IMG/VR virus record: IMGVR_UViG_3300029131_000181
DNA length: 64,000 nucleotides
Direction: 5' to 3' (one strand)
Origin: a virus
Positions 7,903-32,480 of the stretch are shown here, piece by piece (within the stretch, counting starts at the first letter, position 1; each line of letters opens with the position of its first letter). The notes under the pieces are model-generated. The model searched no databases, was not told the DNA's origin, and saw only the letters and a list, made by a program, of their open reading frames with translations. Position numbers and translations under genes: made by a program.

Positions 7903-7929
7903 TTGTACGGCGTTCGTATATTTTGGCAA
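7903..7929 (-). promoter_or_regulatory. promoter P3 (divergent variant of the conserved motif)
   Basis: Minus strand reads TTGCCA-aaatatacgaacgccg-TACAAT. Confidence 0.4.
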
Positions 7930-7932
7930 GCG

Positions 7933-16078: not shown

Positions 16079-16549
16079 TTACAGCTTCCAAATCTCGACA
16101 TTTACATTCCAGGCTTTAGCCGCATCGCTGATGATGTCCAGAACCGTGTTCCAATCGCCTCCGGCAAGGCCGCAGCCTAAACCATATGGCAGCCGGATAG
16201 TTACGTCCTGATTATTTCGAGCGCAGTCTCTAAAAAACGAGAACAGCGCAGTCGCCAATGCAGCATAATTCGTCTGTCTTTCACCACGGCCATAGCCATT
16301 TTGGCCGAACAGGTTCACGATGTACAGCTTCGGTTCTACCAGAACCTCCTGGTAAGTACCGAGCTTGTTGCCGTTGTTTCCATAGCAAAACTCCAGATAG
16401 CGCTGATATACCACCGGCCATTGGATGCAAATTTGCATGGCAAGTCCAGCTCCCATCACGCCTTTGCAATTTACTTGCTGGCAAATGTAAGTTGGCTTAC
16501 TCGCAGAAAGTCGTGAAAAAATATTGCCATCAACAAAATTTATGCTCAT
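16079..16549 (-). CDS. macro-domain protein (ADP-ribose binding/processing)
   Basis: ICQQVNCKGVMGAGLA and YGLGCGLAGGDW fit the macrodomain glycine-rich ADP-ribose-binding loops. Start refined to MSINF with AAGGTGG RBS. Stop/start overlap with the upstream lipoprotein gene. Confidence 0.7.
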   Translation of the reverse strand: MSINFVDGNIFSRLSASKPTYICQQVNCKGVMGAGLAMQICIQWPVVYQRYLEFCYGNNGNKLGTYQEVLVEPKLYIVNLFGQNGYGRGERQTNYAALATALFSFFRDCARNNQDVTIRLPYGLGCGLAGGDWNTVLDIISDAAKAWNVNVEIWKL

Positions 16550-16550
16550 C

Positions 16551-16958
16551 TCACTTACCACCTTTTCCAAATTTCGAGGCATTTCCCGGATAAATCGCAT
16601 AGCCCGTGCGATAATCAACGCTATCGTCTCGGTATACGAGCTCTACATTCGACATGCTGGTATAAAAGACTTTATCACGATAACGGCTATCGTTGATTTC
16701 AAACTTGATGTTTTGCCCGTTGTCCACGATTTCGTAGCTTACAAGAGCAGATACAGTCCAGATGTTATCATAGCGAAAATGAATGTAATTGTATTCCGGT
16801 TCCGTATCAGCGCTTTCCGGTGTAGCCAGCATCTGACTCGGAATGTCTTCGAGTTCAGACATTGTGGTACTTGTCACAGTGCTGATTGCGTCCTCACAGC
16901 CAGCCAAAGGTAGAGCCAGGCAGCACAGCACCAAAGCAGTTCCAATAAATTTTTTCAT
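16551..16958 (-). CDS. lipoprotein
   Basis: Signal peptide plus lipobox LPLAGC. GGAGAAA RBS. Confidence 0.65.
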   Translation of the reverse strand: MKKFIGTALVLCCLALPLAGCEDAISTVTSTTMSELEDIPSQMLATPESADTEPEYNYIHFRYDNIWTVSALVSYEIVDNGQNIKFEINDSRYRDKVFYTSMSNVELVYRDDSVDYRTGYAIYPGNASKFGKGGK

Positions 16959-17012: not shown

Positions 17013-17283
17013 ACCCAACAGCCATAAGGCCACTGAGCAGCTTAGTGTGAATTCTATTGTGTGCATAGTATCTTTCGTACAAATTCGATGGTATGAGATT
17101 CGCACGCCGGGTCAAGACACATCGGCAGCTACGCATCCTGGCACCTACGGTTCCAACGGCAAAAAGCGCAGCTACGCAACAAATAAGCAAAAAGAAAAAG
17201 CCGCCCACCCGGTCAGGGGTGAACGGCAGGAAACGCTATCTATGTAAAAAAACGACTGAGTTCGTCAGAGGTCTTGTAATCTA

Positions 17284-18807
17284 TCAGGCAGCCATCTTCG
17301 CTGCGGTTTTGCCCTTCGGACCCTTCTTCCGTGCATTGGCTTCAAGCTCCTTCTTGTTGGTATCATACCAAACCTCGAACTCCTTGAAGTTGTTCAACGC
17401 CCAAATCTCAGGAGAAGCCTTGCGACCGTAAGTTTCTTCCAACAGGTGGATAACTTTGCGGCCAACTTCTTCCATGATTTCGGCATCGTATTTGCCGCCA
17501 CCGCAGTAAAACCCTTCAGGCATAATAATGTCGTATTTAGGGTCAAGAACTTCAAGCCCCGGCTCCAAAACGCGAATGCCTTTGTAGCCAGCTTTGCGTA
17601 CAGCTTCAAATTTGAAGCGGTCCTTTTCGGCAGCATCTGCGTGCGGATATTTTCCATTATACTCATAAATGAGTCTCTGGATATGGTCCACGAAGTCTAA
17701 TCCCAAAAGACTATTTTCGCCCAAGATGTTTCGAACATCAAAGAAGGGGTTGGCAATTCCGTTTTCACCGGCAAATGCCAACATGGGACGTGTGTAAAAC
17801 CACTCCGGCTTGGAAATGGCATTGATTCTTCGCATTTTGCAGTCGTAGCATCCAGTAAGACCGTTGTTCACAGAACGAACAATATTGTTAATTGCAGCTT
17901 CGAATTCTTGCCCGCAATCACGGCATTTGAAGAAGGCTTTTTTGTTGCTTTGAACAGTTACTTCTGAAGCAGAAAGCTTGTTTTTACTACTCCACATGGA
18001 GGCTGCTTTCGGACATTGCGACGCAAGGTCATTGATGCCGGGAACAACCCTCCGACCTACGCAAACTAGGCATCCAGTGTTGCCGTTTTTTACAGCACAA
18101 ACAACATCTCCAATTATGGCTTTGAACTCTTGCCCACAATCCGGGCACACAAAGAAAGCTTTTTTCCCGCTTTTAGCTGTGACTTCTGAAGCGGAAAGCT
18201 TATTTTTATTACTCCACATAGCGGCTGCTTCTGGGCACTGTGACGCAAGGTCATTGATGCCAGGGGCAACTCTTAGTCCTCTGCAAACAGGGCAACCTGT
18301 GTTTCCGTTACTTACAGAATAGACAACGTGTTCGATTTTGGCTTCAAATTCTTCCCCGCAGTCCGGGCATACGAATATCGCCTTTTTGTTGCATTTGACA
18401 GCAATTTCCGAGGCAGACTTTTTGTTTTTGTTACTCCACATAGCTGCAATTTCCGGGTATTTCGACGCAAGGTCGTTGATGCCGGGGATAATCTTTCTTC
18501 CTGCGCAAACAGAGCAACCCGTGAATCCCTTGTCTACAGAACGAACAACATTAAAGATTCTGCTTTCAAATTCCTGCCCGCAATCAGGACACACAAAAGT
18601 GAGTTTTTTATTGCTTCCAGTAGTAACTTCAAAGGCAAGTTTCTTATCTTTTTCGCTCAGCATTGCAGCTACTTTTGGGCAAGCAACAGCAAGGCAATTT
18701 TTCTTAACCACTTCATACGGCATCTCAATGCCAAGAGCCGGAATAGGAGCGCAAGAAGCGCAGTTGCAAGAGTTAGCGTGCATCATAATTTTCATGTTAG
18801 TATTCAT
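17284..18807 (-). CDS. zinc-ribbon repeat protein (4x treble-clef DUF4379-like repeats) with C-terminal Vsr/DUF559-like endonuclease domain
   Basis: Four tandem ~75 aa repeats, each FVCPDCGQEF...GNTGC.VC.G...PGINDLAS...AAMWS.KNK. C-terminal IYEYNGKYPHADAAEKDRFKFEAVRKAGYKGIRV matches the Vsr/DUF559 E-x-DG...H...D..R...L...G..V.R pattern. Start refined to MNTNMK with AAAGGAG RBS. Confidence 0.7.
   Translation of the reverse strand: MNTNMKIMMHANSCNCASCAPIPALGIEMPYEVVKKNCLAVACPKVAAMLSEKDKKLAFEVTTGSNKKLTFVCPDCGQEFESRIFNVVRSVDKGFTGCSVCAGRKIIPGINDLASKYPEIAAMWSNKNKKSASEIAVKCNKKAIFVCPDCGEEFEAKIEHVVYSVSNGNTGCPVCRGLRVAPGINDLASQCPEAAAMWSNKNKLSASEVTAKSGKKAFFVCPDCGQEFKAIIGDVVCAVKNGNTGCLVCVGRRVVPGINDLASQCPKAASMWSSKNKLSASEVTVQSNKKAFFKCRDCGQEFEAAINNIVRSVNNGLTGCYDCKMRRINAISKPEWFYTRPMLAFAGENGIANPFFDVRNILGENSLLGLDFVDHIQRLIYEYNGKYPHADAAEKDRFKFEAVRKAGYKGIRVLEPGLEVLDPKYDIIMPEGFYCGGGKYDAEIMEEVGRKVIHLLEETYGRKASPEIWALNNFKEFEVWYDTNKKELEANARKKGPKGKTAAKMAA
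17930..18640. repeat. intragenic tandem nucleotide repeats (~225 bp units, about 85% identical)
   Basis: For example, 17950-18090 versus 18175-18310 align base for base with few substitutions. They encode the zinc-ribbon repeat units. Confidence 0.6.
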
Positions 18808-18837
18808 GATAGATTTCTCCTTTGTTATCAATAAAAA

Positions 18838-18888
18838 TAAAAAAGCAGCCACCCTTCCCTCTTTTGAGGGCAAAAGCGACTGCTTTAC
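18838..18888 (-). terminator. intrinsic terminator
   Basis: Long imperfect hairpin AAGCAGCC...GGCTGCTT with U-runs in minus orientation. Confidence 0.4.
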
Positions 18889-18927
18889 GTTCAATGGGTA
18901 TTGAGTTGTTATTCATGAAGAATTGCT

Positions 18928-19113
18928 TCACTCGTCCAGCATAACCTGCAAACGGGCGTTGAATTCCTTCATGTCGGCGCTTTCCTCGGCTGCAGCAAGG
19001 ACACGCGGATAAATTTCCGGATTCATGCTCTTCAGCATGTTCAGAGTAGAAAGAAGCAGAGGGTTGGTGATAGTCATAGTAAGCATCTCCTTGTTATTCA
19101 TAGTAATGTTCAA
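18928..19113 (-). CDS. small hypothetical protein (61 aa)
   Basis: ATGA overlap with the upstream gene. Confidence 0.35.
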   Translation of the reverse strand: MNITMNNKEMLTMTITNPLLLSTLNMLKSMNPEIYPRVLAAAEESADMKEFNARLQVMLDE

Positions 19114-19949
19114 ACGTTGGTATTCGTGCGATGGCCTTTCAGCGTGCCCTTGTTGAACTGTGTCAAACGGGCGTGCTTCAGAACAAATCCGTCTTCGAAT
19201 TGAACGTCAACGGCGTTTGTGCTGATGATGCGAATGATGGTTGCTTTCGAGCCATCATTCATGGTCTTGGTCATAGGTCCGCTATACTCGACCTTAAAAT
19301 CGAAAGGAAGCGGCTTATGCTTGGTGCAGCAGGGACAAGAAGAACTGCCGTTATTGATGCAGTGGACAAGAGAATTCACGTGAGTGACGTATTCTTCTCC
19401 GCAATCCGGGCATACAATGACGACCTTCTTGCAGCTATTGGCACTTACTTCACGCGGGGAGAAAGCGTTTTTGCTGCTCCACATTTTTGCCACGGCAGGA
19501 GATGTGGTTGCCAAGTCATTGGTTCCGGGAACGACTTTCATGCCACGGCATACGGGGCAAGTGAAGGTTCCATTCTCGATGTCTTTGACCAAAGAGATGA
19601 TTTTTGTTGTGTACTCTGCATGACAATCAGGGCATACAACAATCACCTTTTCGGGACTGTCACAGCGAACTTCGTCGGGATGAATCGTGTTTTTAGGACT
19701 CCACATAGCTGCAATTTTGGGATACTTGGTAGCCAAATCATTGACTCCGGGAACAAGCTTTTCGCTATGGGTTTCTTCGGCTTTGAATGCCGTAGTTACC
19801 TTACGGTTTTTGACCGTTTTGAATCGGCAGACAGGGCAGGCAGTTACGCCACGCTGCTTAGCTCTAACAAGGTTTGCCTCGTAGGTTGTGTATTTGCAAC
19901 CGCAATCGGGGCAGATGGTGATGACTTTTTCGTTCATGTTAATGTTATT
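19110..19949 (-). CDS. zinc-ribbon repeat protein (paralogue of 17284..18807), no recognisable nuclease domain
   Basis: Repeats ITICPDCGCKY...ACPVCRF, VVCPDCHAEY...CPVCRGMKVVPGTNDLAT, VIVCPDCGEEY...SSCPCC. Start refined to MNNINMNEK. The 5' extension overlaps a terminator and a promoter. Confidence 0.6.
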   Translation of the reverse strand, partial: NNINMNEKVITICPDCGCKYTTYEANLVRAKQRGVTACPVCRFKTVKNRKVTTAFKAEETHSEKLVPGVNDLATKYPKIAAMWSPKNTIHPDEVRCDSPEKVIVVCPDCHAEYTTKIISLVKDIENGTFTCPVCRGMKVVPGTNDLATTSPAVAKMWSSKNAFSPREVSANSCKKVVIVCPDCGEEYVTHVNSLVHCINNGSSSCPCCTKHKPLPFDFKVEYSGPMTKTMNDGSKATIIRIISTNAVDVQFEDGFVLKHARLTQFNKGTLKGHRTNTNV

Positions 19950-20009
19950 CATGATAGTTCCGGGTGCTGCTCTTGATGCAATCTCCACAGCGGGTCGGTC
20001 GCTTCTGCA

Positions 20010-20045
20010 AAACAAAAAGGACAACCTCAAAATGAGGCTGTCCTT
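20010..20045 (-). terminator. leader terminator between promoter (20101..20128) and the zinc-ribbon gene
   Basis: AAGGACAACCTC-aaaat-GAGGCTGTCCTT perfect 12 bp stem plus U-run. About 55 nt upstream of the start codon. Confidence 0.5.
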
Positions 20046-20100
20046 GCAAAAGCGGAATGTTAAAAATAAATTGGTAAGTGGTATCTTTGATACAACATCT

Positions 20101-20128
20101 ATCATAGCCATCTCGCACACATTGTCAA
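20101..20128 (-). promoter_or_regulatory. strong sigma-70-like promoter
   Basis: Minus strand reads TTGACA-atgtgtgcgagatggc-TATGAT (16 nt spacer). The spacer resembles the conserved element. Confidence 0.55.
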
Positions 20129-20130
20129 AC

Positions 20131-20168
20131 AAAAAAAGACCCTGCCCGCATTTTGCTGCGAGCAGGGT
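20131..20168 (-). terminator. intrinsic terminator after the acidic-protein gene
   Basis: ACCCTGCCCGC...GCGAGCAGGGT hairpin flanked by A- and T-runs. Possibly bidirectional. Confidence 0.5.
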
Positions 20169-20188
20169 TTGCTTTTGCACTGTTGTGC

Positions 20189-20509
20189 TTAGCCTTCAAG
20201 GTCGAAGGTGTAGCTGTCTTCTTTCATTGCAACAAGGCCCTTAAACGTCTGGCACTCGGCGTCGTCCAGGAATGCCTTGATGGTCAGGCTGGTATCCTCG
20301 TTATCCAGCCATTCGGGACGCATACGGACAACGAGGTCGTGCAGCTCTCCGACGACATAGGCCATCAGGTCCTGGTCGCCCAGGGCCTCACCAATTGCTT
20401 CATCATCGTATTCGACAGGGAAGCTGATGGAAGCGGCGAGGCCGTCGAGTTCGTCAAAATCTTTGGGACGGATTACAGTGGCTTCAAGTTTCAGAATGCT
20501 AGTGCTCAT
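20189..20509 (-). CDS. small highly acidic protein (106 aa)
   Basis: About 25% Asp+Glu with few basic residues. AAGGAG RBS. Directly downstream of promoter P5. Confidence 0.55.
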   Translation of the reverse strand: MSTSILKLEATVIRPKDFDELDGLAASISFPVEYDDEAIGEALGDQDLMAYVVGELHDLVVRMRPEWLDNEDTSLTIKAFLDDAECQTFKGLVAMKEDSYTFDLEG

Positions 20510-20557
20510 GGTAAAATCTCCTTTTTGTGTGTTGTGGTTTGTCTTTCAACATTTTTA

Positions 20558-20585
20558 ATTGTACGCAATTCGCACGCTGTAGCAA
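20558..20585 (-). promoter_or_regulatory. promoter P5 with conserved spacer element
   Basis: Minus strand reads TTGCTA-cagcgtgcgaattgcg-TACAAT. Confidence 0.55.
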
Positions 20586-20638
20586 TACAAAATTTCTTAT
20601 ATTGGGTTCGCAATTTCTTGTATTTGCCTTGGGATTCT

Positions 20639-20720
20639 GCACAAATCAAGACCTATGAAAGGGTGAAATCCTACACAAATCAAGACCTTAACACACCCCA
20701 AAAACAACACAAATCAAGGA
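20639..20720. repeat. three 14-15 bp direct repeats (A/G)CACAAATCAAG(A/G)(C/A) at exact 34 bp spacing (iteron-like)
   Basis: Copies begin at 20639, 20673 and 20707. The surrounding region (20590-20775) has no convincing ORF. Confidence 0.55.
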
Positions 20721-20776
20721 TTTTGCTTCACCAATTCTTGCCGCCGTGTACACCGCACACCAGGCAAAACGCCTCA

Positions 20777-21070
20777 TCAATGCTCCTGCAGTTCATCGAC
20801 CTGAATCCGCGTGGGCCCATGAGCATGTTCCCGCACAAAATATAGGTTTCGCTCATGCCCCGGCCGCTGATACTTATGGTGTTCCCAAAGACATGAACGG
20901 TTGAGCCATCTCGACACATGGCAAACATTATATACGTCTCGCTTTCTGTTTTTGTTTCTTATCATTCTAGGCAAATCGCATAATGAGTCAATTTCAGACA
21001 TTCTGGAATAAGCATCCATTAGGCAGCGTTCCCTTTTGAGGTTGTTGGCTACATAATAACCACGTGGCAT
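20777..21070 (-). CDS. hypothetical small basic protein (uncertain)
   Basis: 97 aa ORF starting immediately after the TAA of the upstream gene (TAAATG). Arg/His-rich. Could be non-coding. Confidence 0.25.
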   Translation of the reverse strand: MPRGYYVANNLKRERCLMDAYSRMSEIDSLCDLPRMIRNKNRKRDVYNVCHVSRWLNRSCLWEHHKYQRPGHERNLYFVREHAHGPTRIQVDELQEH

Positions 21071-21880
21071 TTATTCTTCCGCACTAATCATCAGCCCATG
21101 AATGTAGTTTTTTGAATGGCTTTTCCCACTTTTTAACGCTTTTACATCAATAATAGCAGCTCTATAAATAGGCTGTTTCAACCTTCTAAAGCCATCGGAC
21201 AATTTGTCGTAATATTTATATGGTGCGTACCAAATCATGTAATCTGCATCACTATTTTTTATGATGCTTTGAAATTTTATATCATGTGCATAGAAGTGGA
21301 GCTGTGACGGAGAGACATAATTGATTTGACCTTTTTCAGGGATAATATAAGTTTGACCGGCGAAAAGTTGCGTATATGCAGTGGATTCGTCATAAACAAA
21401 AAATATAGTTTTGAAGTTTTCATGGTTTTGTTGGTAAAGTGGAATTTTGTTATTGTGACTCGAAACAACTCGCTCAAAGGAATCAAAATACCACTTGAAT
21501 TGATGGTCCTCCATTGTAGGCAAGTCCGTAACAGCGTTTATTACGACATCTTGTGTTTCGCTTGTAATGACGCCAGCATTTTTGAATTTTCTATACACTT
21601 GACTTTCTTTTTCTGCTTTTGGATTATATAATTTGCCTTTTTTCCCTTTCCTCGTATTATCCTCTATCTTCATAACATCCATCATAAGGCCATATTTATC
21701 CGAGTAAAAATCCGGTGGTGGTGCATTATGTGCAGAGGTATCTATCCATTCATTCCAGAAGTTTTTGCTTTGAATGATGGAACGCAGTTCCGCTTCTTCT
21801 TTTGTATTACATAATAAGCAAATTTCTTTTGTTGGCTCTGTTTGAAATTTACGAATTAACTGTTTTTCTGATTCAATCAT
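21071..21880 (-). CDS. hypothetical protein
   Basis: Start refined to MIESEKQ with an AAGAGGG RBS. AT-rich gene. Confidence 0.5.
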   Translation of the reverse strand: MIESEKQLIRKFQTEPTKEICLLCNTKEEAELRSIIQSKNFWNEWIDTSAHNAPPPDFYSDKYGLMMDVMKIEDNTRKGKKGKLYNPKAEKESQVYRKFKNAGVITSETQDVVINAVTDLPTMEDHQFKWYFDSFERVVSSHNNKIPLYQQNHENFKTIFFVYDESTAYTQLFAGQTYIIPEKGQINYVSPSQLHFYAHDIKFQSIIKNSDADYMIWYAPYKYYDKLSDGFRRLKQPIYRAAIIDVKALKSGKSHSKNYIHGLMISAEE

Positions 21881-21912
21881 AACCATCGCCCTCTTTCTGC
21901 GAAACAAAAAGC

Positions 21913-21986
21913 TTCCCACCGCAGTCAGTGTGATACTGATTACGATGGAGGATTAAACCTTTTGTGATAGTCTTATTATACCACGC
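21913..21986 (-). promoter_or_regulatory. repeated promoter/5'-leader element copy A (extended -10 TGGTATAAT)
   Basis: About 75 bp, about 85% identical to 23291..23368. Minus strand reads gcgTGgTATAATaag followed by a conserved leader. Confidence 0.45.
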
Positions 21987-22173
21987 TTCGTGAATTACTC
22001 GAATTACTCAAGGCCAATCTTAGTACACCCCTCCTTCAGGTGGGGTAGTTGACTTGTATGAGGTTCGCATAATCGGTTAACCGTCATACCTCATGAATCC
22101 GACCAGACCGGACTTTAAATTTCTTTGTAAACAAAAAATAGTCCGCACAGAACTGAATCTGTACGGGCTCGTA

Positions 22174-22638
22174 TTAGTCATGAGGATGTTCGTGGCATGG
22201 TTCAGGCGGCATACCATGCGGGTCAGGCTCTTGGAAGTGACCATGGTCCCCGATGATTTCCGAAGTACGGATACCGTTCGCTTTCCGGCAAGCCTCAATG
22301 GTTTTAGAAAGCACTTCCTTGACATCGCGCGGGTTCTTGATACGACGGATATCGATTTCCGGTGTCATAGCATCCGTGGAGCAGAGATGGATGCTGCCAA
22401 CACGGCACAGACGCTCATAGAAGTTCTGCTTGAATGCGATGTCCCGGACGCGGTACAGCTGAATCTCGTCCTCGCGCAAATTGAAGCAGCCACGCTGGAT
22501 GATGAGTTTGGTCTCGGTCAGGGTGTACTTCGTAAAGGATAGCGGCAGAGAAAAAATGGTGTGGCGTTTTCGGTCGGTCCAGAGAATTTTCTCCTTGTCC
22601 AAGTCGATGCCGAACTCGCCGTTTTTGAGGGTGGACAT
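22174..22638 (-). CDS. bacterial PH-domain (bPH_2/DUF304-like) protein with His-rich C-terminus
   Basis: The pattern TETKLIIQRGCFNLREDEIQLYRVRDIAFKQNFYERLCRVGSIHL fits the bPH_2 fold. Extended -10 TGGTATAAT at 22731-22739 upstream. Confidence 0.6.
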   Translation of the reverse strand: MSTLKNGEFGIDLDKEKILWTDRKRHTIFSLPLSFTKYTLTETKLIIQRGCFNLREDEIQLYRVRDIAFKQNFYERLCRVGSIHLCSTDAMTPEIDIRRIKNPRDVKEVLSKTIEACRKANGIRTSEIIGDHGHFQEPDPHGMPPEPCHEHPHD

Positions 22639-22815
22639 GGTATGGTTCCTTTCGTTATGTGATTGGTTTTGGTTATTGGTATTCTGCTTGATGGTGTGTG
22701 GAATGATGTTATAGTCTTTATATTGAGTATATTATACCATGCTGTGATGATTTTAGCAATTCCATTTAAAGTGTTAGTACGCAAACAAAGCCCGGTTCAC
22801 TATTGGTCTCCAATA

Positions 22816-23265
22816 TCAACCATTTTCTAGGTTCCCTGTGCTCTTGTTTGTTGCGGAAAGGACGTATTCTTTGCCGTATAGTGTTACCCAAAAATTGTTA
22901 CAACTACCATTAAAATAGCCACGATTTTTCAAGTCTTCGAAACGTAGGCGCGCTTTTCTTGTCGCTTCTTTTTGGTTTGCGTTGTTTTCTCGGTCTTTGT
23001 ATCCATTTCCCGTCATAAAAAGCATTCGCAATTCAGAGTTGTTATCAATCACTATAGGAACACTATCTTGACCATTTGCGAGTTCTAGTGCCTTTTTCAA
23101 TATTGTAATAGATTCCTTGCCATCAATCTTGGAAAGCCATTCTTCAGCGTCCTTAGTAGTCACTGTCACTTTTTCATTTCTCATAACAGCTTTTTTTCGC
23201 TTATTATGGTAATAAGTATAAATGTGCTGTGCCACAATTTTCTTGTCGTCATTTTCGCTTTTCAT
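22816..23265 (-). CDS. hypothetical protein
   Basis: 149 aa ORF preceded by repeated promoter/leader element copy B. Confidence 0.5.
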   Translation of the reverse strand: MKSENDDKKIVAQHIYTYYHNKRKKAVMRNEKVTVTTKDAEEWLSKIDGKESITILKKALELANGQDSVPIVIDNNSELRMLFMTGNGYKDRENNANQKEATRKARLRFEDLKNRGYFNGSCNNFWVTLYGKEYVLSATNKSTGNLENG

Positions 23266-23290
23266 ACAGAATCCTCCTTAAAATAAACAG

Positions 23291-23368
23291 CCTCCCACCG
23301 CAGTCAGCATACTACTGATTACGATGGGAGGCTCAAAACCTTTTGTGATGGTTCTATTATATCACGCC
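23291..23368 (-). promoter_or_regulatory. repeated promoter/5'-leader element copy B (extended -10 TGATATAAT)
   Basis: Homologous to 21913..21986. Confidence 0.45.
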
Positions 23369-23399
23369 TTGCGAAAAACTCAAGGCAAATTTCAATAAC

Positions 23400-23789
23400 T
23401 CAGTCAATATCTAAGTTACCAAAATCATCTGCAGGAGGCTCGTTGTACCAGTCATACTCCTCTGCTTTTTCATCATCCAAATCGTCATCAAAGAAGTCGT
23501 CATCAGTGACGGGAATGTCTTCCCTGATGTCCTGCTGTGGCACGAACGTGGCAGCGGTAGCGGTATAGTCGCCGTCTTCGAGCACAATCTGCACGGTTGC
23601 GATATCCCCTACTTTGGGGACAGAACCGTTCTGAACGGATGCATCGGGGTTACGCTGGACATCCACCTCGACATCGAGCGCCGGGATGAAGACCACGATG
23701 GTCTTGTGGGTGACGGTAGTCACGGTTCCGGAGTAAGCGGCTTCGTTTTCGTGAATGTCCTGGCGGACGGTTTTCTTAGTATTAAACAT
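23400..23789 (-). CDS. hypothetical acidic protein
   Basis: 129 aa. C-terminal half is Asp/Glu-rich (DDDFFDDDLDDEKAEEYDWY). GAGGTAGAAG RBS. Confidence 0.5.
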   Translation of the reverse strand: MFNTKKTVRQDIHENEAAYSGTVTTVTHKTIVVFIPALDVEVDVQRNPDASVQNGSVPKVGDIATVQIVLEDGDYTATAATFVPQQDIREDIPVTDDDFFDDDLDDEKAEEYDWYNEPPADDFGNLDID

Positions 23790-23809
23790 TAACTTCTACC
23801 TCGCTGATT

Positions 23810-24270
23810 TTGTATGCTTCATCGTGGACCTCCCCACCTAAACCTTTCGGCTATAGTTGGGGCTTCTCCGTGGGTTGTAACCCCACGGTAAGTCTCTGCG
23901 TAACCCGAAGGTAGAGATACGACCCGAACTTAGCTAACAATGCCTGACGGCATTGGTCGCCACATAGGGGTTAGTCTCCCGCAAAGTTCTCGCAACACAG
24001 TGTAATCCCAACAGATGGGCCCGGGCTGTTGAGTCGCCACGGGGGGCTCAACAGTGAATGCAACTGTTTAAGGGAGTACAATGTGCATTGGGTTCTACGC
24101 TCAATGTCAGGAACTTTAGCCTTACACTGAGACCATGCCTTCTTTGACATGGGTTTTGTTACCTCGCGGATGAAATACCGGGCACCAATGTTATAATTGG
24201 GAGCTAGAAAACCCGCAGGCTTTCCTGTGGTATGAACGGCTCCTGTTTTTGAATTTTTTTGTAAAATAAC
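23810..24270. ncRNA. ORF-free structured region (candidate ncRNA or long structured 5' leader)
   Basis: About 450 bp without ORFs between divergent genes, with higher local GC. Perfect hairpins CCGTGGG-ttgtaac-CCCACGG and CAACAG-N11-CTGTTG. Ends on the plus strand with GGAGC...GCTCC plus a T-run (24205-24270). Confidence 0.2.
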
Positions 24271-24353
24271 GACCTAGCAGCTTGGCCAACGGTATAGAAT
24301 GCATGTATAATATATGTATGAAATGATACTACATAACTGTCGGAGGAATCTTT

Positions 24354-24758
24354 ATGGCATTGCCCGGTATGCTTGAGCTTACGAAGGAACAAACGCAACG
24401 GCTTGTGAATATCATCGAGGATAAGCAAGGTTGTATTTGCAACGTATCTAATAGTATGCGCACAGTCTGGATTACTTCTGATGACGGTGAAAATGAACTT
24501 AGGGTTTCATTTCTTTGTAATTTTGCTTTGGTTATTTCACGTGTTAGGTTTTCTATAAAGCGTCATGGTACAATGTCTCTGTTGCTCGATGCGTTGAAAG
24601 AAATTTGCGAAGACTATGGTGTGCATCGTATCGTTATGCAATCTGTACTAACTCGTGAAATGGAAGTCTTTTGTCATAAAGCTGGGTTTCGAGCAGACCC
24701 GAACGCAACAATGGAGGTTGATGGGATTCTTACAGGGGATTATAAATTGGATTTTTGA
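24354..24758 (+). CDS. GNAT-family acetyltransferase-like protein
   Basis: C-terminal GTMSLLLDALKEICEDYGVHRIVMQSVLTREMEVFCHKAGF resembles the GNAT acetyl-CoA binding core. GGAGG RBS. Plus-strand promoter TTGGCC-N18-TATAAT upstream. Confidence 0.5.
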   Translation: MALPGMLELTKEQTQRLVNIIEDKQGCICNVSNSMRTVWITSDDGENELRVSFLCNFALVISRVRFSIKRHGTMSLLLDALKEICEDYGVHRIVMQSVLTREMEVFCHKAGFRADPNATMEVDGILTGDYKLDF

Positions 24759-24844
24759 AAAAATACGACATTTGTATTCCCATCTGTGCCGGTGAACATA
24801 CCGAACATGAAATAGCGATATTTTTTCATGATATGCTCCCACCA

Positions 24845-25981
24845 TTACATATCCGACTTCGCCGCATTACACTTCTTGCACAGCATCTGCAGATTGTCAT
24901 CAGTGGTATGTCCGCCCTTGCTCCAAGGAATGATGTGGTCGCCTTCCATATCCTCAAAGGCGTACTCGGTGTTGATGCCATTTGCAACGCACAAGGGGCA
25001 CTTGTGACCCTGCCGCTCATAGGCGCGGAGTTTCTGCGACTCAGTAAATGCACGAAGGGACAGATGCTTTTCGTCGCGCCAAGTGCGGTCAGAGAGGATG
25101 AACGGGACAATGCCTGCCTTCTTGGTCACGTCATCATCCAGCACGAGTTTCTTGATATCAGCGTCCAGAGCGTTGCTATTATACTGCTTTGCATGGTACT
25201 TGTTGTAGAGTAGTCCCCATGCCTGTGTATCCGTAATTCCCTTCCGCTTGGTCGGGAACAACATTTTAGCCCAGTTGATTACAGACTGGAAGTAAAGCCA
25301 GAGGTCATTGGCGTCCTCGTCATGCTGGTGAATCGCCATGTACATCTGCCCGGATTCCAGACCATCACGGTCAGCAATCCACGCCAGTGCCTTTTCCAGC
25401 AACTCCTGCCGAATCGGGTTACCTTTCAGGTATCCGTCAGCCATCTTCGCAGCAACACAGTTGCGTTTCGAGAAGTAGTTCTTGGCATCGGCCAGCCACG
25501 GTCCTGTATAAGTAGCGTTCAGCAGCTCCTGCGGAGTCAACACCTCACCGGCGATGTTGATGCGCTTGAACCATTCCAGTTTCTCGGCTTCGGAGCCTTC
25601 ACAGATATTCACGGTCAACTCGTAGTCCAGAATTTTCTGTTTTTCCTCATCTGTCAAGTTCTGGAAGAACTTGTCGTTGCCGTTGATTTTGACGGGGAAA
25701 TCCTTGTTGACATACTGTGCAATGGAAATTGTCCGCTGTTGTCCATCGAGAACCTCGTAGGTATCTGGACCGGTCTTGGACCAGTACATGAGGTTCAACG
25801 GGAATCCGTTCATTACCGAATCAATGACGGCTGCACGCTGTTTATCGGAGAAGCAAAAATTTCTTTGGTAGCTTGGCCTAATCGTGAGGCGATTGTTGTA
25901 CCCATATACGCCACTGTCTCCGTCATCCGAATAGTTCTCTACAAGGTCGGATACCTTGATTTTGGTTTCTGTGATTTTCAT
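24845..25981 (-). CDS. DUF262 (ParB-like NTPase, GmrSD N-domain) + HNH endonuclease fusion
   Basis: DGQQR motif (EVLDGQQRTISI). C-terminal HNH: CPLCVANG...EGDHIIPWSKGGHTTDDNLQMLCKKCNAAKS. Confidence 0.8.
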   Translation of the reverse strand: MKITETKIKVSDLVENYSDDGDSGVYGYNNRLTIRPSYQRNFCFSDKQRAAVIDSVMNGFPLNLMYWSKTGPDTYEVLDGQQRTISIAQYVNKDFPVKINGNDKFFQNLTDEEKQKILDYELTVNICEGSEAEKLEWFKRINIAGEVLTPQELLNATYTGPWLADAKNYFSKRNCVAAKMADGYLKGNPIRQELLEKALAWIADRDGLESGQMYMAIHQHDEDANDLWLYFQSVINWAKMLFPTKRKGITDTQAWGLLYNKYHAKQYNSNALDADIKKLVLDDDVTKKAGIVPFILSDRTWRDEKHLSLRAFTESQKLRAYERQGHKCPLCVANGINTEYAFEDMEGDHIIPWSKGGHTTDDNLQMLCKKCNAAKSDM

Positions 25982-26862
25982 AACAATTTCCTTTCTCTGC
26001 CCACAATGTTAATATCGTCAGCACTTTTTATAATTGCTTTTATTATATTCTGCGTCAACTCATATTTAGAAATTACATGCTTTTTGGCAGATGCATAAGA
26101 AGCGGCATTCAGACGCATCACATCCTTTTCTTTCGCATTGCGAATCAATCTATTCTCCTTTTGCAACGAAGAGTTGCTGCCGCATGATGTAACGCAGTAA
26201 ATTTTTGGCGACAATATTGTGATAACCATATGATTTGATAAACTATATTCTGTGCCTGTGTTATTCAAACAGCCTGTACCCAGCACAAGCCCTATATCCG
26301 GAAGTAAAATGGCGCTATTGTTTGCTTTATAGATAACGGTTCCTGAACTGTAATATCCAATTTTTACTTTATAGTAGTTCCACTCATTATCAGATAACTT
26401 TGGATGGTTCCCCGTCTGTATAAATTTCATGAAATTGCAAAATGCTTCTTCTGTATCGAACAGTTTTTTTATTTCGTCTATATACGATGGTAGCCTGAAC
26501 AGCATACGCAAGGCATACTCTCCAAGCCAATGCGCAGATTCTTCGGATATTCTATTTTCCGAATTCAAATAAGTTGTTTTATCAATTTCATTAAGAATTT
26601 CGTTCAACTTTTTCGCATCAGAATTCTCAATATCATTGCTCAGGAGTCCTTTTTCAATCTTCCCACGATAGCATTCGTTCCATTTTTTGAGCTCTGGATA
26701 TTCATATAAATTGTTTTCCGCTGCAATACCTTTTACATTTGCCCCTACATGTATAATTTTTCCAGTTTCCTTGTTATATACAAAAAAATTTCCGTCTTTT
26801 CCAGCGAATTTTTTCAGTCGGTATTTTGGCAAATAATGTTGATTTTCATTTTGTACCTTCAT
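25978..26862 (-). CDS. DUF4238-like protein
   Basis: N-terminal NQHYLPKYRLKKFAG resembles the DUF4238 HY(V/L)P(Q/K)F signature. Very AT-rich. ATGA overlap with the downstream HNH gene and about 17 nt overlap with the upstream MTase gene. Confidence 0.6.
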   Translation of the reverse strand: MKVQNENQHYLPKYRLKKFAGKDGNFFVYNKETGKIIHVGANVKGIAAENNLYEYPELKKWNECYRGKIEKGLLSNDIENSDAKKLNEILNEIDKTTYLNSENRISEESAHWLGEYALRMLFRLPSYIDEIKKLFDTEEAFCNFMKFIQTGNHPKLSDNEWNYYKVKIGYYSSGTVIYKANNSAILLPDIGLVLGTGCLNNTGTEYSLSNHMVITILSPKIYCVTSCGSNSSLQKENRLIRNAKEKDVMRLNAASYASAKKHVISKYELTQNIIKAIIKSADDINIVGRERKLL

Positions 26863-27955
26863 CGCCTTGCTTCCTCCTTTTTCTGATAAAAATTCTCTGA
26901 TAAACTGCAGAAAGCTGCACGCCATCAGGGCTTACCGAAAAGTCGCTCCTTCCTCTTTTAACAACTTTTGGTGACATCTTATCTCTTAATGCACCAGAGC
27001 CGGAGATTGTTACGCCATCCGCCTTGAAGAACTTAAAGCCAAGGCTTGTATAATCTTTATCGGCTCTGCAAGGCGTATCATCGAACATGGAACCACCAAC
27101 AATCTCAAACTGCTCCGGATTATACTTATCCAAAAAAGTGATAGGCACGCCCATAACGCCTTCATAGTCCACCGGAATATTCGCAACCCTATCCACATTG
27201 ATGGCCATGTAGTTATCATAGCGGGGGTAGCGCTCTTCCACGTCCGGCAGAGGGTTTCCGTCATCGTCATAGTACCGCTGCCAGAGAATCAGTTTCTCGT
27301 GGCGCTTCTGGATGTCGAGGTTAGTAAACCATCTTGTTAGACCGTTGATTTTCTTTGTTATTCCATTGGGGGTATCAAACTCGGATGGTGAGCTATAACC
27401 AATCCACACTTTGTTTTCTTTCAGAAGTGGAAAAAACTCTTTGTATGTAATGGCGTTCTTATTCCCGATAATCAGGAACTTTTTGCCGTGCTGCATCAGT
27501 GTGCCAACATACTCACGGAATAAGCTGAATGGCGGATTGGTCACCACGATATCACTTTCATCCAGCAAGTCAAGGCATTCCTTGCTCCGGAAATCGCCGT
27601 TGCCTTCCAGCAGGGTTTTTACACCGACTTCCACATCATTATCATCTCCGCCCTCGTACTCCATCTTGTAGGTTGGTTCGGTGTGGTCATAGTGCGTAGA
27701 AATCAGCTTCTTTAAGCCAAGTTCTGCAAAGTTCAGGTGAAAATACCGCCAGAAAGCGGACCATGTCGGGTCGTCACAGTTGCAGAATACAACCTTGCCT
27801 GCGAAATGCTTCTTGTAGTGCCGCAATTCCTCTGCGACATCCTCGATTCTGGTGTAGAACTCATCATTCTTCGCGTCCTTCGCCTTATGAAGGTTATCGT
27901 TCTTTGCCATGTCTATATCTCCCAATAAAAAATCCAGCACCGAATTACTCAGCAC
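26846..27955 (-). CDS. DNA methyltransferase (N6-adenine/N4-cytosine class, NPPF motif)
   Basis: DEFYTR ... FCNCDDP ... TNPPFS motifs. Confidence 0.8.
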   Translation of the reverse strand: MLSNSVLDFLLGDIDMAKNDNLHKAKDAKNDEFYTRIEDVAEELRHYKKHFAGKVVFCNCDDPTWSAFWRYFHLNFAELGLKKLISTHYDHTEPTYKMEYEGGDDNDVEVGVKTLLEGNGDFRSKECLDLLDESDIVVTNPPFSLFREYVGTLMQHGKKFLIIGNKNAITYKEFFPLLKENKVWIGYSSPSEFDTPNGITKKINGLTRWFTNLDIQKRHEKLILWQRYYDDDGNPLPDVEERYPRYDNYMAINVDRVANIPVDYEGVMGVPITFLDKYNPEQFEIVGGSMFDDTPCRADKDYTSLGFKFFKADGVTISGSGALRDKMSPKVVKRGRSDFSVSPDGVQLSAVYQRIFIRKRRKQGDEGTK

Positions 27956-29813
27956 TGGATGTATTTTCCGTATTACAATGACCGCATGATGTTTTCTTGT
28001 TTTCTACAAGACTTTGGGTTATCGCAAAGCATTCGTTTCCGCAATCACATTGACATTTCCATCGAGCATGACCGTTTTGGCTTCCTGCTCTCTCAATGAC
28101 CTTTAGCTTACCAAAGTGCATATTAGCTAAATCGTAAGTTCTTCCTTTTTTGACGAACTTATCGCGTGATGGATTTGCTTTCAAAAAGGCATCTGCTTCC
28201 TCTTCTGTCATGCTTTCGTATTCATTGGCAAATAACCAATGATATCCTCCGGCAACTGTACGTAGCTTGTTGCAGCAGTTCAAGATAGGCGAACCGCCGC
28301 TAATCCCGTATTTAAGAGAAGCCTCTTTTGCTGTAGAAAATCTCTCTTTTGTTTCAACGCAAATCACACTCTTGAAGTGTTTTTGTTTATAGCATTCAGG
28401 GCAGTTATGCCCGTATACTCTATCGGCTATTATCATCTTGTAGGAATGACCGTTTTTGCATTTCCACCAGCATTTTTCTGCAGACCCGGATGAGAAATAT
28501 TCGGGCTTCAAATTCTTGTTTTTTTCGTAATCCCATTCAGCAACAATTTCAGGATGTTCTGTAGCAAGGTTGTTCTTTTCGTTCCGTCTTCTTTTGCCTG
28601 TTGTACAAACAGGACATGTTGCGTTTTCTTTTGCTCTGCCATTGATGGGTGCTTCCCATTTATGCCCGCACTTAGAGCAAATCCAATGAACCATTTCTGA
28701 GCTAGATGATGACACCATCATCGGGTCAATGCCTACATTCAGTTCGTAGTCCCATTCTTTCAGGAGTTCCGGATGCCGTCCGCCCATACTTCGTTCAGCT
28801 TTGTAATCTTTGTATTGACGATAGATGTCTTTTGAATCCTTTTGTGTATCAATGTTAGGTTCAGAAACGCCAAGCATCTCTAAGCATTGGCGAATTGCTG
28901 CGTCGAGCGTTGCGTGCCCTCTATTGTTTTCTCTGATGATATTCTCGCTATTACGAATTTCCTGAAGCCCATGCTCGCGAATACGAATTATCCGAATTCC
29001 ATTCTGCTTGCATTTTTCGGACTTTTCTTCGTCATTTTTCACTCTTTTCTCATCAGAATGGTATCGAACACCATCGTATTCTACTGCAGTGCGAATGGAG
29101 GGGATGTAAATGTCCAGCTCTTTTCCAATAACTTTCTTGTTTCCAATAACAGCCTCTGAAAAATACTTTTTTGCATAATACGCTACTGCTTGTTCTTGGA
29201 ACGAGGTCTGTCCTTTATCGATAGTGCTGCATATCGGGCAACTCTTGATACGCTGGATGTAATGATATACGCTTGCCTGCCATTCCGTGCCACAAGCAGA
29301 GCATTTCCACCATACAACAATATTGCTTCCTTGTGTCAGCATACTGACATCTACGTCCTTATTTTTTGCAAAGTCATAGTCTTGCATAGCTTCTGCATTA
29401 TCTACAAGCATTTTCGAAGCTTCGGTAATGTGTTTGCAACAACCGCAAGACTTCACTTTTCCCCGCAGCAAAGAAGAGCGATAAGCAACAAATTCTTTTC
29501 CGCAGCTACACATACAGTTATAACGAATGTTTCTATGCCCCGTGCTTCCAATCGCATCTTCTGCCAAAGAAATAACTTTGATACCGTTGTGTTCTTCGCC
29601 AACCAAATCCTGGTATGTACGTTTACGGTCTTTACCTCGGCAGTCTTTACACTTTAACCCTTTCAAGAGCGCGTCGATACCAATTATCATTGTGTTTCCG
29701 CAGCAGTTACATTTCACCAAATAGGTATCTGCTTTTGAATTAGAGCCGGGGATAGTTTCGAAAACTGTTAAATCTCCGTATGTTTTGCCTGTTCTATTTA
29801 TTTTCGCCGCCAT
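27945..29813 (-). CDS. zinc-ribbon repeat protein with internal Vsr/DUF559-like nuclease motif (paralogue of 17284..18807)
   Basis: Multiple C-x2-C...C-x2-C ribbons (KCNCCGN...CKDCRG; WKCSACGTEW...CPICS; CWWKCKNGH...CPECY). AVEYDGVRYHSDEKRVKNDEEKSEKCKQNGIRIIRIRE matches the Vsr/DUF559 pattern. Stop overlaps the MTase start. Confidence 0.65.
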   Translation of the reverse strand: MAAKINRTGKTYGDLTVFETIPGSNSKADTYLVKCNCCGNTMIIGIDALLKGLKCKDCRGKDRKRTYQDLVGEEHNGIKVISLAEDAIGSTGHRNIRYNCMCSCGKEFVAYRSSLLRGKVKSCGCCKHITEASKMLVDNAEAMQDYDFAKNKDVDVSMLTQGSNIVVWWKCSACGTEWQASVYHYIQRIKSCPICSTIDKGQTSFQEQAVAYYAKKYFSEAVIGNKKVIGKELDIYIPSIRTAVEYDGVRYHSDEKRVKNDEEKSEKCKQNGIRIIRIREHGLQEIRNSENIIRENNRGHATLDAAIRQCLEMLGVSEPNIDTQKDSKDIYRQYKDYKAERSMGGRHPELLKEWDYELNVGIDPMMVSSSSSEMVHWICSKCGHKWEAPINGRAKENATCPVCTTGKRRRNEKNNLATEHPEIVAEWDYEKNKNLKPEYFSSGSAEKCWWKCKNGHSYKMIIADRVYGHNCPECYKQKHFKSVICVETKERFSTAKEASLKYGISGGSPILNCCNKLRTVAGGYHWLFANEYESMTEEEADAFLKANPSRDKFVKKGRTYDLANMHFGKLKVIERAGSQNGHARWKCQCDCGNECFAITQSLVENKKTSCGHCNTENTSSAE

Positions 29814-29958
29814 ATTGAATTTCCCTCTTTAATAAAAAATCCTATGCAGAATCTCTCTGCATAGGATGCCTTTTTACTTATTTGAATAAGGCTGTTTATT
29901 TCTTCCGTCTGAATCTATTATGTCACGGGCTGGTCCCCACAAAAAAATGAGCGTTAAA

Positions 29959-30013
29959 TGTGCGGAAACGCACAAAAAACGCACGCACACATTTTTTGAA
30001 TGATGCGTGCGTT
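29959..30013. promoter_or_regulatory. two palindromes in the divergent intergenic region: TGTGCG-gaaa-CGCACA and AACGCACGCA-N16-TGCGTGCGTT
   Basis: Perfect 6 bp and 10 bp inverted repeats. The half-site TGTGCG equals the core of the conserved promoter-spacer element. Confidence 0.5.
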
Positions 30014-30109
30014 TATGATAGCTTTTATTTAATGAAATGAGAGAATATATAGTGGCACTTCAGAGTAGGGCTTTCTGCTTTCCCCTGTACCCTGTCGTTG
30101 ATGGATGCT

Positions 30110-30236
30110 TTTCATTTGCGCCCGCACTTGGTGCAGACCCAGTAAACAGCATTTGTGCCGGAAGCTGTTACCTGCATCGGGTCGATGCGGGTGTTGAGCT
30201 TACGGTTCCAGTTGTCGCGCAGTTCCGGATGAAATT
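30110..30236 (-). pseudogene. remnant of a zinc-ribbon-repeat gene (3' fragment)
   Basis: Minus-strand translation FHPELRDNWNRKLNTRIDPMQVTASGTNAVYWVCTKCGRK* matches the E(H)PE...W...KN...CxxCG repeat unit. No start context. The plus-strand 161 aa ORF here is rejected. Confidence 0.4.
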
Positions 30237-30245
30237 TAGAAAACA

Positions 30246-30279
30246 CAAAAAGAAGCCGCAGAAACCTATCCTCTGCGGC
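30246..30279 (-). terminator. intrinsic terminator about 20-50 nt downstream of promoter P6
   Basis: GCCGCAGA-aacctatcct-CTGCGGC hairpin plus U-run. Confidence 0.5.
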
Positions 30280-30303
30280 TACACTTATTTATCTTATATT
30301 TCC

Positions 30304-32462: not shown

Positions 32463-32480
32463 TGAAAGGGGGGCTTCGCA

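Follow-up and report, generated by a model that had tools for sequence, protein, structure and literature searches.

Free-standing homing endonuclease genes (HEGs) are exemplified by seg and mob of phage T4. Homing endonucleases with a Vsr fold were named the EDxHD family in 2011 (PMC3239194). I-Bth0305I (PDB 3R3P) is phage-borne, lies in a recA group I intron and has a C-terminal nuclease joined to two NUMOD/HTH motifs; its Asn208 is the equivalent of Vsr His64 (PMC3239194). The phage-intron HEGs described in 2025 combine three to five CapR/DUF4379/DUF723-like zinc-finger modules of ~60 aa with a C-terminal EDxHD/Vsr domain of ~100 aa, and thousands of unannotated relatives were reported (PMC12350094). 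T5orf172 HEGs of ICP1 and other phages, described in 2023 together with 'HEG islands', carry CapR/DUF723/DUF4379-type zinc-finger repeats (PMC10055350). The genes analyzed here form no new category, since their fold family (PMC3239194), their architecture (PMC12350094) and their repeat and domain-shuffling dynamics (PMC10055350) are in the literature. The first-pass annotation had called a Vsr-fold core in such genes an under-described flavour, a view overtaken by the papers of 2011 and 2025.

The window, the 64-kb stretch of DNA that was analyzed, comes from a large human-gut phage-like genome, with Faecalibacterium as the leading candidate host. A few hot spots between genes break up its conserved backbone. 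IMG/VR lists related contigs (100-390 kb) as viral, and the viral nature of the genome is taken from these labels and a few PHROG matches; structural genes are absent from the 64-kb window. Megablast of a 13.5-kb region found no near-identical DNA in GenBank phages or PLSDB plasmids. Four ORFs, here called A to D, had been described as three paralogues and a decayed fourth copy of a nuclease gene family with zinc ribbons. All four scored above the Pfam gathering threshold (24.5 bits) for DUF4379 (PF14311), a treble-clef zinc finger, with 129.2 bits for A, 51.1 for B, 158.4 for C and 27.2 for D; Pfam counted four DUF4379 stretches in A and three in C. An HMM derived from the repeat units and run over six frames of the window matched A, B, C and D and no other place. 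The genes and their parts are as follows.

17284..18807, minus strand: gene A, 507 aa, four DUF4379 ribbons and a C-terminal EDxHD/Vsr-like nuclease (Pfam, unit HMM)
17794..18681, minus strand: ribbon units of A, four in tandem, 222 nt (74 aa) each, residues 43-338 (TRF period 222, repeat family D1)
17287..17820, minus strand: C-terminal nuclease domain of A, residues 330-507
18928..19113, minus strand: g61, a small ORF between B and A, present only in the window's own cassette lineage
19110..19952, minus strand: gene B, 280 aa, three DUF4379 ribbons, of which the first is partial, followed by a small beta-barrel that is conserved at the C terminus
27945..29813, minus strand: gene C, 622 aa (Pfam, PHROGs, unit HMM)
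28914..29216, minus strand: nuclease core of C, residues ~200-300 (profile, hhalign)
30025..30243, minus strand: D, pseudogene of a 78-aa single-ribbon DUF4379 gene (Pfam 27 bits, alignments)

As first proposed, A, B, C and D are free-standing and intergenic. Each has its own terminator. Searches with Rfam at gathering thresholds found no group I or group II introns in the window. An intron- or intein-encoded HEG was ruled out because the genes sit between the terminators of separate genes and Rfam finds no intron around them.

Both parts of the architecture first read in A, four repeats and a Vsr-like C-terminal domain, were recovered. The identity of about 85% first given for its repeat units at the DNA level applies only to the best 60-nt window; pairwise identity between units is 58-72%, TRF matches are 77% and no exact run exceeds 20 nt. 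Copy number does vary, as had been anticipated: homologues of A carry 3, 4, 5, 6 or 7 units (n = 60, 30, 21, 8 and 1, respectively), showing that 74-aa ribbon units are gained and lost in frame. The putative active site of A consists of D371, E382, N384, H389, D396 and K399, with E335 as an upstream candidate. All of 89 distinct homologues keep D371, N384, H389 and D396 and also E335, whose equivalence to Glu170 is uncertain. Across representatives the nuclease domain of A is 80-94% identical, and the flanking backbone genes have 40-55% identity between clades. Conservation of the A domain at this level would be unusual in a gene that is only selfish.

Database searches with the C-terminal domain of A returned little. 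Its only match to the PDB by sequence was at chance level, Pfam DUF559, Vsr and MTES_1575 did not match A, and Pfam and PHROGs yielded nothing useful for the C-terminal domains of A or B, neither of which matched any of 50,697 phage records by tblastn. Its weak sequence neighbours are DUF559/MTES_1575 proteins, many of them also with DUF4379. A, C and seven relatives of the A domain from a representative search, 5/7 with DUF559/MTES_1575 matches, were aligned, and D, E, G, H, D, K, G, R and E were invariant.

Gene C is organized differently, with its nuclease inside the protein, as the first reading of ribbons with an internal Vsr-like motif had it. Two CxxC...CxxC ribbons and one DUF4379 unit precede the EDxHD/Vsr nuclease, and two more DUF4379 units, a weakly homing-endonuclease-like segment (residues 476-553) and a C-terminal ribbon follow it. 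Residues 476-553 are a tentative candidate for a NUMOD/HTH segment; they gave weak PHROG matches (phrog_4538, 9e-5; phrog_314 'homing endonuclease', 0.012) and no Pfam match. C matched PHROGs 559, 374, 681 and 3339, annotated 'HNH/homing endonuclease'. The putative active site is E207, D234, E245, D247, H252, D261 and K264. The nuclease core is present in 119/120 homologues listed and extends over most of its length in 111.

The two nucleases could be joined by profile comparison. A profile of the C nuclease from 24 homologues had a single match in the whole PDB, 3r3p_A (E 5e-4), and hhalign matched the A family to the C nuclease at 98.3% (E 1.6e-14). The residues by which the EDxHD family is recognized (Glu, Asp as Mg2+ ligand, the His64 equivalent, His and Asp) occur in both A and C, with E335 as a candidate for the Glu of A. 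For A a fold comparison was needed, and it did not refute the Vsr-like fold suggested for the end of the protein. The nucleases of A and C are homologues, and both are homologous to the I-Bth0305I catalytic domain. The profile search that had been suggested for DUF559 and Vsr was negative, as the Pfam models fell below their thresholds on A and C (for C, MTES_1575 20.3 against a cutoff of 38.2 and DUF2726 18.3 against 24.7). The tie of A and C to DUF559/MTES_1575 is seen via intermediates and profiles only. The fold and core motifs (hD..., hE.(D/N)G...H, D..K, G...R) are the same in DUF559, MTES_1575 and E. coli Vsr. To our knowledge, Vsr and typical DUF559 proteins are small and lack strings of DNA-binding modules.

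A and C have the active-site set of I-Bth0305I (Asp, Asn or Asp, His, Asp) and, like it, are phage-borne and join a nuclease to modular DNA-binding domains (PMC3239194). A has Asn at the Asn208 position, and its EYNG motif matches EVNG of I-Bth0305I (PMC3239194). Sequence identity to I-Bth0305I is only about 17%, and in contrast to that intron-encoded enzyme with its pair of NUMOD/HTH motifs, both window genes are free-standing, with 3-4 tandem DUF4379 ribbons; the nuclease of C is internal rather than C-terminal. By description, A has the architecture of the module-string EDxHD HEGs, with four modules (3-7 in homologues), from which C deviates by its internal nuclease (PMC12350094). Those HEGs are encoded in introns of cultured phages, whereas A and C lie in intergenic cassettes of an uncultured gut genome and A is paired with its nuclease-less paralogue B. 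The T5orf172 HEGs share with the window genes 'beads-on-a-string' zinc-finger DNA-binding repeats and HEG domain swapping, but have a GIY-YIG-like catalytic domain instead of EDxHD/Vsr and come from Vibrio phages (PMC10055350). One of their repeats was lost in frame in a step of 228 bp, compared with 222-bp steps in the window family. Further parallels are the position of HEGs at the edges of exchangeable islands and the existence of nuclease-less derivatives, of which CapR is a DNA-binding repressor (PMC10055350). DUF4379 proteins of cultured phages (Listeria LMTA-94, LP-125 and WIL-1, and Campylobacter, Bacillus and Sporosarcina phages) are 27-34% identical to C over one ribbon and the nuclease core, are shorter than C and are annotated 'DUF4379 containing protein' or hypothetical.

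To define the B-g61-A cassette, the window was compared by blastn with empty-site relatives (L028, L023, L021, L022, L024, L025 and L032). Homology reaches window position 20126 and resumes at 17188. The features at this site are listed below.

17189..20125, minus strand: B-g61-A cassette, cleanly missing from empty-site relatives (blastn, gene-order table)
20139..20168, minus strand: terminator of backbone gene g106, 12-bp stem and T-run, with the same hairpin at empty sites
20101..20128, minus strand: predicted sigma-70-type promoter in the first cassette bases, TTGACA-16-TATGAT, 11/12 matches (consensus match only)
20017..20045, minus strand: hairpin and T-run in the 5' leader of B, possibly an attenuator or regulatory site
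17200..17227, minus strand: terminator closing the A cassette; the same hairpin belongs to the backbone at the empty site of L042, in a distant clade

The cassette begins directly after the T-run of the g106 terminator, and its junctions have ~11-13 nt of T-rich sequence in common, at terminator T-runs. B and A make up one promoter-to-terminator cassette. Some 1250 relatives carry A. Loci fetched with A as the query, each covering ±10 kb, all had the order g106-B-A-g135, but this reflects ascertainment bias from the query. The neighbouring gene g106 was used as an unbiased anchor for the site. The site was empty in 19/20 close relatives (L021-L039) and occupied in L020. A second clade is polymorphic, with B and A present in L041, L046 and L047 and missing from L042-L044, as well as from the more divergent L040 and L045. 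The junctions are clean, and in the second clade the flanks are 94-98% identical. A and B were therefore rejected as fixed core genes, and the sporadic distribution on which the homing idea had been staked was found.

B is the constant nuclease-less partner of A, lying directly upstream of it in every occupied locus of both clades. The first-pass annotation described it correctly as lacking a nuclease, but it is not ribbons only, since a small beta-barrel of SH3/Tudor/KOW-like type is modelled for its final ~55 residues, and its ATG is at 19952 rather than 19949. The ribbons of B are about 41% identical to those of A. B homologues come in lengths of 248, 322 or 396-406 aa, and between clades they are 43-47% identical, as diverged as the backbone. 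In L006 the B copy appears frameshifted and A is intact. The small ORF g61 had no Pfam match.

The second hot spot contains D and C. Window 31947-30243 aligns with L009 233-1927 (96%) and window 27935-27156 with L009 1959-2733 by blastn, which gives the following features.

27936..30242, minus strand: D-C cassette, missing from L009/L020, which have 31 nt in its place (blastn)
30254..30280, minus strand: backbone terminator directly upstream of the D-C junction, also in L009
29839..29867, minus strand: terminator-like hairpin a short way upstream of C that nearly duplicates the hairpin at the 3' end of C (repeat family D6)
27932..27960, minus strand: terminator overlapping the C stop, directly before the methylase start

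The view of D as the remnant of a fourth nuclease copy had to be abandoned, because its intact orthologue is a separate 78-aa single-ribbon gene (L015/L016 6180-6416). D is 73-74% identical in nucleotide sequence to L015/L016/L019 6203-6534, and its reading frame can be traced over 30025-30243. At the cassette junction (30243) ~8 codons are missing from its 5' end, and it has an in-frame TGG>TGA change at 30112-30114, a nonsense codon also found in L023. C itself is sporadic as well. It is intact in L023, broken in L028 by a 1-nt indel and a 70-nt deletion, and absent from L009/L020 and L048. In L019, C and A are fused in the C::A chimera P0125, which has two nuclease cores, and the ~10 kb between both genes is gone. 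P0130 and P0131 have the N-terminal half in common with C and different C-terminal halves. Recombination between the paralogues runs through the ribbon repeats.

The cassettes are real and sporadic, and they are new examples of an already described nuclease type. The locus documents, in well-resolved form, the natural life cycle of zinc-ribbon-repeat EDxHD/Vsr nucleases that do not lie in introns: alleles are occupied, empty, decayed or chimeric, ribbons number 3-7, and a recombination between paralogues deleted a 10-kb accessory island. Like free-standing HEGs, the genes are intergenic, have their own expression signals and occur sporadically at a constant site. We consider it probable, with some reserve, that they are homing-endonuclease-like cassettes of DUF4379/CapR/DUF723-type ribbons and an EDxHD/Vsr nuclease at two hot spots. 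Homing itself we infer. The ribbon string would recognize an extended DNA target close to the vacant insertion point of a relative lacking the cassette, the Vsr-type domain would cut there, and repair from a co-infecting cassette-bearing genome would copy the cassette in, as homing or marker exclusion. The enzyme would be retargeted when ribbons are added, lost or reordered. By analogy with the nuclease-less CapR repressor, B would most likely be a DNA-binding regulator or a site-masking partner. Concrete empty-site sequences are now at hand for cleavage testing. Repeated deletion of an old cassette would give the same pattern, and the junction sequences fit gain and loss alike.

An extension of this model, which we regard as doubtful, is a two-component homing cassette in which B occupies or marks the recognition site of A in the carrier and the exchange of 74-aa ribbons acts as a modular retargeting code. 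If B marked the site of A, this would mean self-immunity or target handover, and a modular ribbon code would offer tandem-repeat, potentially engineerable DNA-recognition nucleases.

Alternatively, A and C may be beneficial accessory nucleases, kept because they harm rival phages or host DNA or oppose defence, in cassettes that move at terminators as morons do. The T-run junctions with ~11-13 nt of common sequence suit this possibility, since microhomology recombination could move cassettes without a nuclease. Each cassette has its own promoter and terminator, the neighbouring cargo is of defence or anti-defence type (an EcoRI-like methylase and a GmrSD_N+HNH protein), and the conservation of the A nuclease domain with its invariant catalytic residues points the same way. 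The divergence of B, equal to that of the backbone, suggests long residence rather than recent invasion. However, judged by fold and sequence, the nearest characterized relatives are genuine homing endonucleases (PMC3239194, PMC12350094), and the decay, loss and chimerism of C are typical of selfish HEGs. Marker exclusion by free-standing HEGs is also inter-phage competition, so the two views overlap. We judge accessory function a serious possibility, though not a likely one.

It is quite unlikely that B and A are a toxin-antitoxin-like or self-regulated pair in which A is a DNA-cutting toxin and B neutralizes it or represses the operon. The invariable placement of B upstream of A, its A-like DNA-binding units without a nuclease and the hairpin in the cassette leader would fit such a pair, but no toxin-antitoxin family was matched, plain repressors that derive from HEG DNA-binding domains and have no nuclease are already known (CapR, PMC10055350), and A is intact in L006 beside a B that appears frameshifted. 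Least credible of all is that C is a type II restriction endonuclease paired with the adjacent EcoRI-like adenine methylase, or a Vsr-type mismatch-repair nickase serving a methylase: the C stop lies 35 nt before the methylase start, a 91% identical C in L015 is followed by a C5 methylase, and the C nuclease belongs to the Vsr/PD-(D/E)xK superfamily, yet obligate pairing was not observed, as at least 7 loci (L020, L046, L047, L048, L032, L034 and L038) have the methylase but no C, and C-type nucleases are found with no methylase beside them in L016 and L019, a state lethal to any carrier of a restriction-modification pair. This pairing was rejected on co-occurrence; moreover, a terminator separates C from the methylase, and with at least six DNA-binding modules C does not resemble type II enzymes or Vsr.

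Four ORFs in the window exceed the Pfam threshold for DUF4379, a treble-clef zinc finger, all on the minus strand, which carries all relevant genes:

17284-18807, minus strand, gene A, 507 aa, Pfam DUF4379
19110-19952, minus strand, gene B, 280 aa, Pfam DUF4379
27945-29813, minus strand, gene C, 622 aa, Pfam DUF4379
30112-30246, minus strand, D, a short ORF, Pfam DUF4379

An HMM built from the ribbon unit and run in six frames over the 64 kb matched these four places only. The first-pass annotation read them as zinc-ribbon and Vsr-like nuclease genes resembling selfish homing endonucleases; the ribbon/Vsr nuclease feature is real and this main idea holds. The ATG of B lies 3 nt further upstream than proposed (19952 rather than 19949). 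The ribbons of A are four tandem units, each of 74 aa (222 nt). Their DNA identity had been overstated at about 85%, a value found only in the best 60-nt window: pairwise identity is 58-72%, TRF matches are 77%, and no exact run exceeds 20 nt. Because A, B, C and D lie between terminators they are free-standing, as first suggested, and Rfam found no intron in the window.

Pfam recovered the expected ribbons in the four ORFs, but the DUF559 and MTES_1575 models were sub-threshold on both A and C. In a set of 1.84 billion representatives the last 178 residues of A have very few relatives, 46 clusters in all; the weak matches are DUF559/MTES_1575 proteins, and DUF4379 is also present in several of these. 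A and C were aligned with seven proteins from the representative search that are related to the C-terminal domain of A; the invariant residues were D371, E382, G385, H389, D396, K399, G407, R412 and E415 (A numbering). The internal domain of C was matched by profile in 119 of the 120 C homologues listed, over most of its length in 111. A profile from 24 C homologues had a sole match in the PDB, 3r3p (E 5e-4), the structure of the homing endonuclease I-Bth0305I, and the C nuclease profile matched that of the A family with 98.3% probability (E 1.6e-14). The active site of I-Bth0305I consists of Asp196, Asn208 (His64 in Vsr), His213 and Asp222, plus Glu170 (PMC3239194). Since Asn208 lies in 'EVNG', the invariant 'EYNG' of A mirrors an active enzyme and is not inactivating; C has 'EYDG' at this position. 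Putative active-site residues are invariant across 89 distinct A homologues. These results establish the architecture and fold of the nuclease genes and the conservation of their putative catalytic residues.

Ribbon number is variable. The unit HMM counted 3, 4, 5, 6 or 7 ribbons in 120 A homologues (n = 60, 30, 21, 8 and 1), whose lengths differ in steps of about 74 aa; B homologues have lengths of 248, 322 and 396-406 aa. P0125, a 736-aa protein of the related locus L019 (8001-10211), fuses roughly the first 480 residues of C to the part of A from about residue 113 to 507 and contains two nuclease cores of Vsr type (EYDG at 245, EYNG at 611). L019 is missing the ~10 kb that separates C from A in the window. 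Two other relatives, P0130 and P0131, keep the N-terminal half of C with different C-terminal halves. Variation in ribbon number together with the chimeras indicates that the repeats do act as substrates for recombination, both inside a gene and from one paralogue to another, so the proposal that copy number can change by recombination stands despite the lower identity.

A homologues are carried by metagenomic contigs reaching 388 kb and, in IMG/VR, by 'viral' contigs from human gut samples (104-389 kb). About 30 loci share a conserved backbone (hel731, g184, g150, g234, g466(+), g106, g135, g179, hel908, g257, g295, g240, g386), and in the window extra sequence lies between its genes at four points: an IS200/IS605 element, the D-C cassette with a 9.7-kb island, the B-g61-A cassette (g61 is a small ORF between B and A), and a TnpB gene. 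The accessory and IS200/IS605-type features are:

about 20600-27935, accessory island, with several unknown ORFs besides the next four genes
26846-27910, EcoRI-like N6-adenine methylase
25978-26925, DUF4238
24845-25981, GmrSD_N+HNH
22174-22638, bPH_2 protein
14728-15837, minus strand, solo TnpB
32043-33812, plus strand, TnpA+TnpB pair
about 24000-24200, TnpB C-terminal relic

The island is missing from most relatives, whose g466-g106 gap is about 290 nt. Since both complete IS elements are missing from many otherwise near-identical relatives, they are recent insertions.

All loci retrieved with A have the order g106-B-A-g135, as if B-A were a fixed pair. This was ascertainment bias, as revealed when occupancy was counted from g106, the neighbour of the site, instead of A. 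The site is empty in 19/20 close relatives, with g135 about 285 nt past g106; B-g61-A is present in L020 alone. A second clade, whose g106 is about 52% identical, is occupied in L041, L046 and L047 and empty in L042-L044, and the site is empty too in the more divergent L040 and L045. Nothing takes the place of window 17189-20125 in L028, L023 and L025, where junctions are clean, and 11637-15063 of L041 corresponds to 8 nt in L042, with flanks 94-98% identical. The cassette opens with a near-consensus promoter (TTGACA-16-TATGAT), immediately following the T-run of the g106 terminator, and closes with a terminator of its own. In the second clade this closing terminator belongs to the backbone at the empty site. 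The D-C segment (27936-30242) is missing in L009 and L020, which have 31 nt instead, and in L048; it is intact in L023 and broken in L028, with an indel of 1 nt and a deletion of 70 nt. Position is constant but occupancy sporadic, so the pattern named as contrary to homing, genes fixed at conserved positions, is not what the relatives show.

B has ribbons and no nuclease. The C-terminal ~55 residues are strongly conserved in its family and are predicted to form a four-stranded small barrel (pLDDT >90). D, taken at first for the remnant of another nuclease gene, is instead the counterpart of a 78-aa single-ribbon gene intact in L015, L016 and L019 (6180-6416; 73-74% nucleotide identity). The window copy has lost about 8 codons from its 5' end, a loss ending exactly at the cassette junction, and has TGG>TGA within its CGRRW motif, a lesion identical in L023. 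Between D and C, L015, L016 and L019 have a gene of 481 aa (6517-7962), absent from the window, with no convincing Pfam family and only faint TPR matches; upstream they carry two TPM_phosphatase genes and LemA, which the window lacks. The cassettes, then, are autonomous, polymorphic in occupancy, and subject to decay and chimera formation.

The EDxHD family of Vsr-fold homing endonucleases was defined in 2011 on I-Bth0305I (PMC3239194). In 2025, homing endonuclease genes (HEGs) with three to five CapR/DUF4379/DUF723-like modules and a C-terminal EDxHD/Vsr domain were described in phage group I and II introns, and thousands of unannotated relatives were said to exist (PMC12350094). A has their architecture but is free-standing, not intron-encoded. 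In 2023, T5orf172 HEGs were described with zinc-finger repeats arranged like beads on a string, loss of a single repeat in frame (228 bp), swapping of domains between HEGs, islands bordered by HEGs, and DNA-binding derivatives that lack the nuclease (CapR) (PMC10055350). Relatives of C at 27-34% in cultured Listeria, Campylobacter and Bacillus phages are annotated only as 'DUF4379 containing protein'. Specific here are the free-standing cassettes that members of the ribbon/EDxHD group form in an uncultured gut genome, the pairing of A with a constant partner, B, the internal nuclease of C between ribbons of several kinds, and a documented C::A fusion with the accessory island removed.

We infer a homing cycle in which the ribbon string would read a long DNA target close to the empty insertion point and the Vsr-type domain would cut it, after which recombinational repair from a co-infecting carrier would copy the cassette in. 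Ribbon changes would retarget the enzyme, and B may be a DNA-binding regulator or site-masking partner. Several findings count against homing. The indels are unpolarised as gain or loss. The nuclease domain of A shows unusually high conservation (80-94%), compatible with either a benefit to the phage or horizontal spread of A's 3' half. B divergence between clades (43-47%) equals that of the backbone, suggesting long residence, and junctions at T-runs with ~11-13 shared nt make nuclease-independent, moron-like movement possible as well. The genes might instead be nucleases that benefit the phage in competition or against defence and travel on moron cassettes, which is conceivable, though on balance unlikely. 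That the cassette has two components, with B providing immunity or targeting, and that the ribbons form a modular code appears doubtful, and a toxin-antitoxin-like role for the B-A pair seems improbable. A restriction-modification or Vsr-repair partnership of C with the neighbouring methylase is rejected as highly implausible because each occurs without the other in many loci.

Other features were also observed. The methylase+GmrSD module occupies another backbone site in L032, L034 and L038. Two ~100-nt intergenic segments, 21902-22000 and 23281-23381, are 80-85% identical and lie directly upstream of the unrelated g282 and g149; they are probably a shared promoter or leader module. g179 (16079-16618, minus strand) matches the Macro-domain model along its whole length but below threshold (E 0.07, 13.5 bits against a cutoff of 22) and may bind or remove ADP-ribose. 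A 465-aa protein (53107-54504, minus strand) matches PHROG HNH-endonuclease families (phrog_119, E 5e-50), making it another candidate homing or accessory nuclease, of different catalytic type. Finally, 43594-43663 (minus strand) matches the Faecalibacterium prausnitzii HDV-like ribozyme at full length and Rfam gathering level (RF02682, 60.4 bits), and the helicase at 35855-38050 shares about 51% identity with one from a Faecalibacterium phage; together they point to a Faecalibacterium-associated element.
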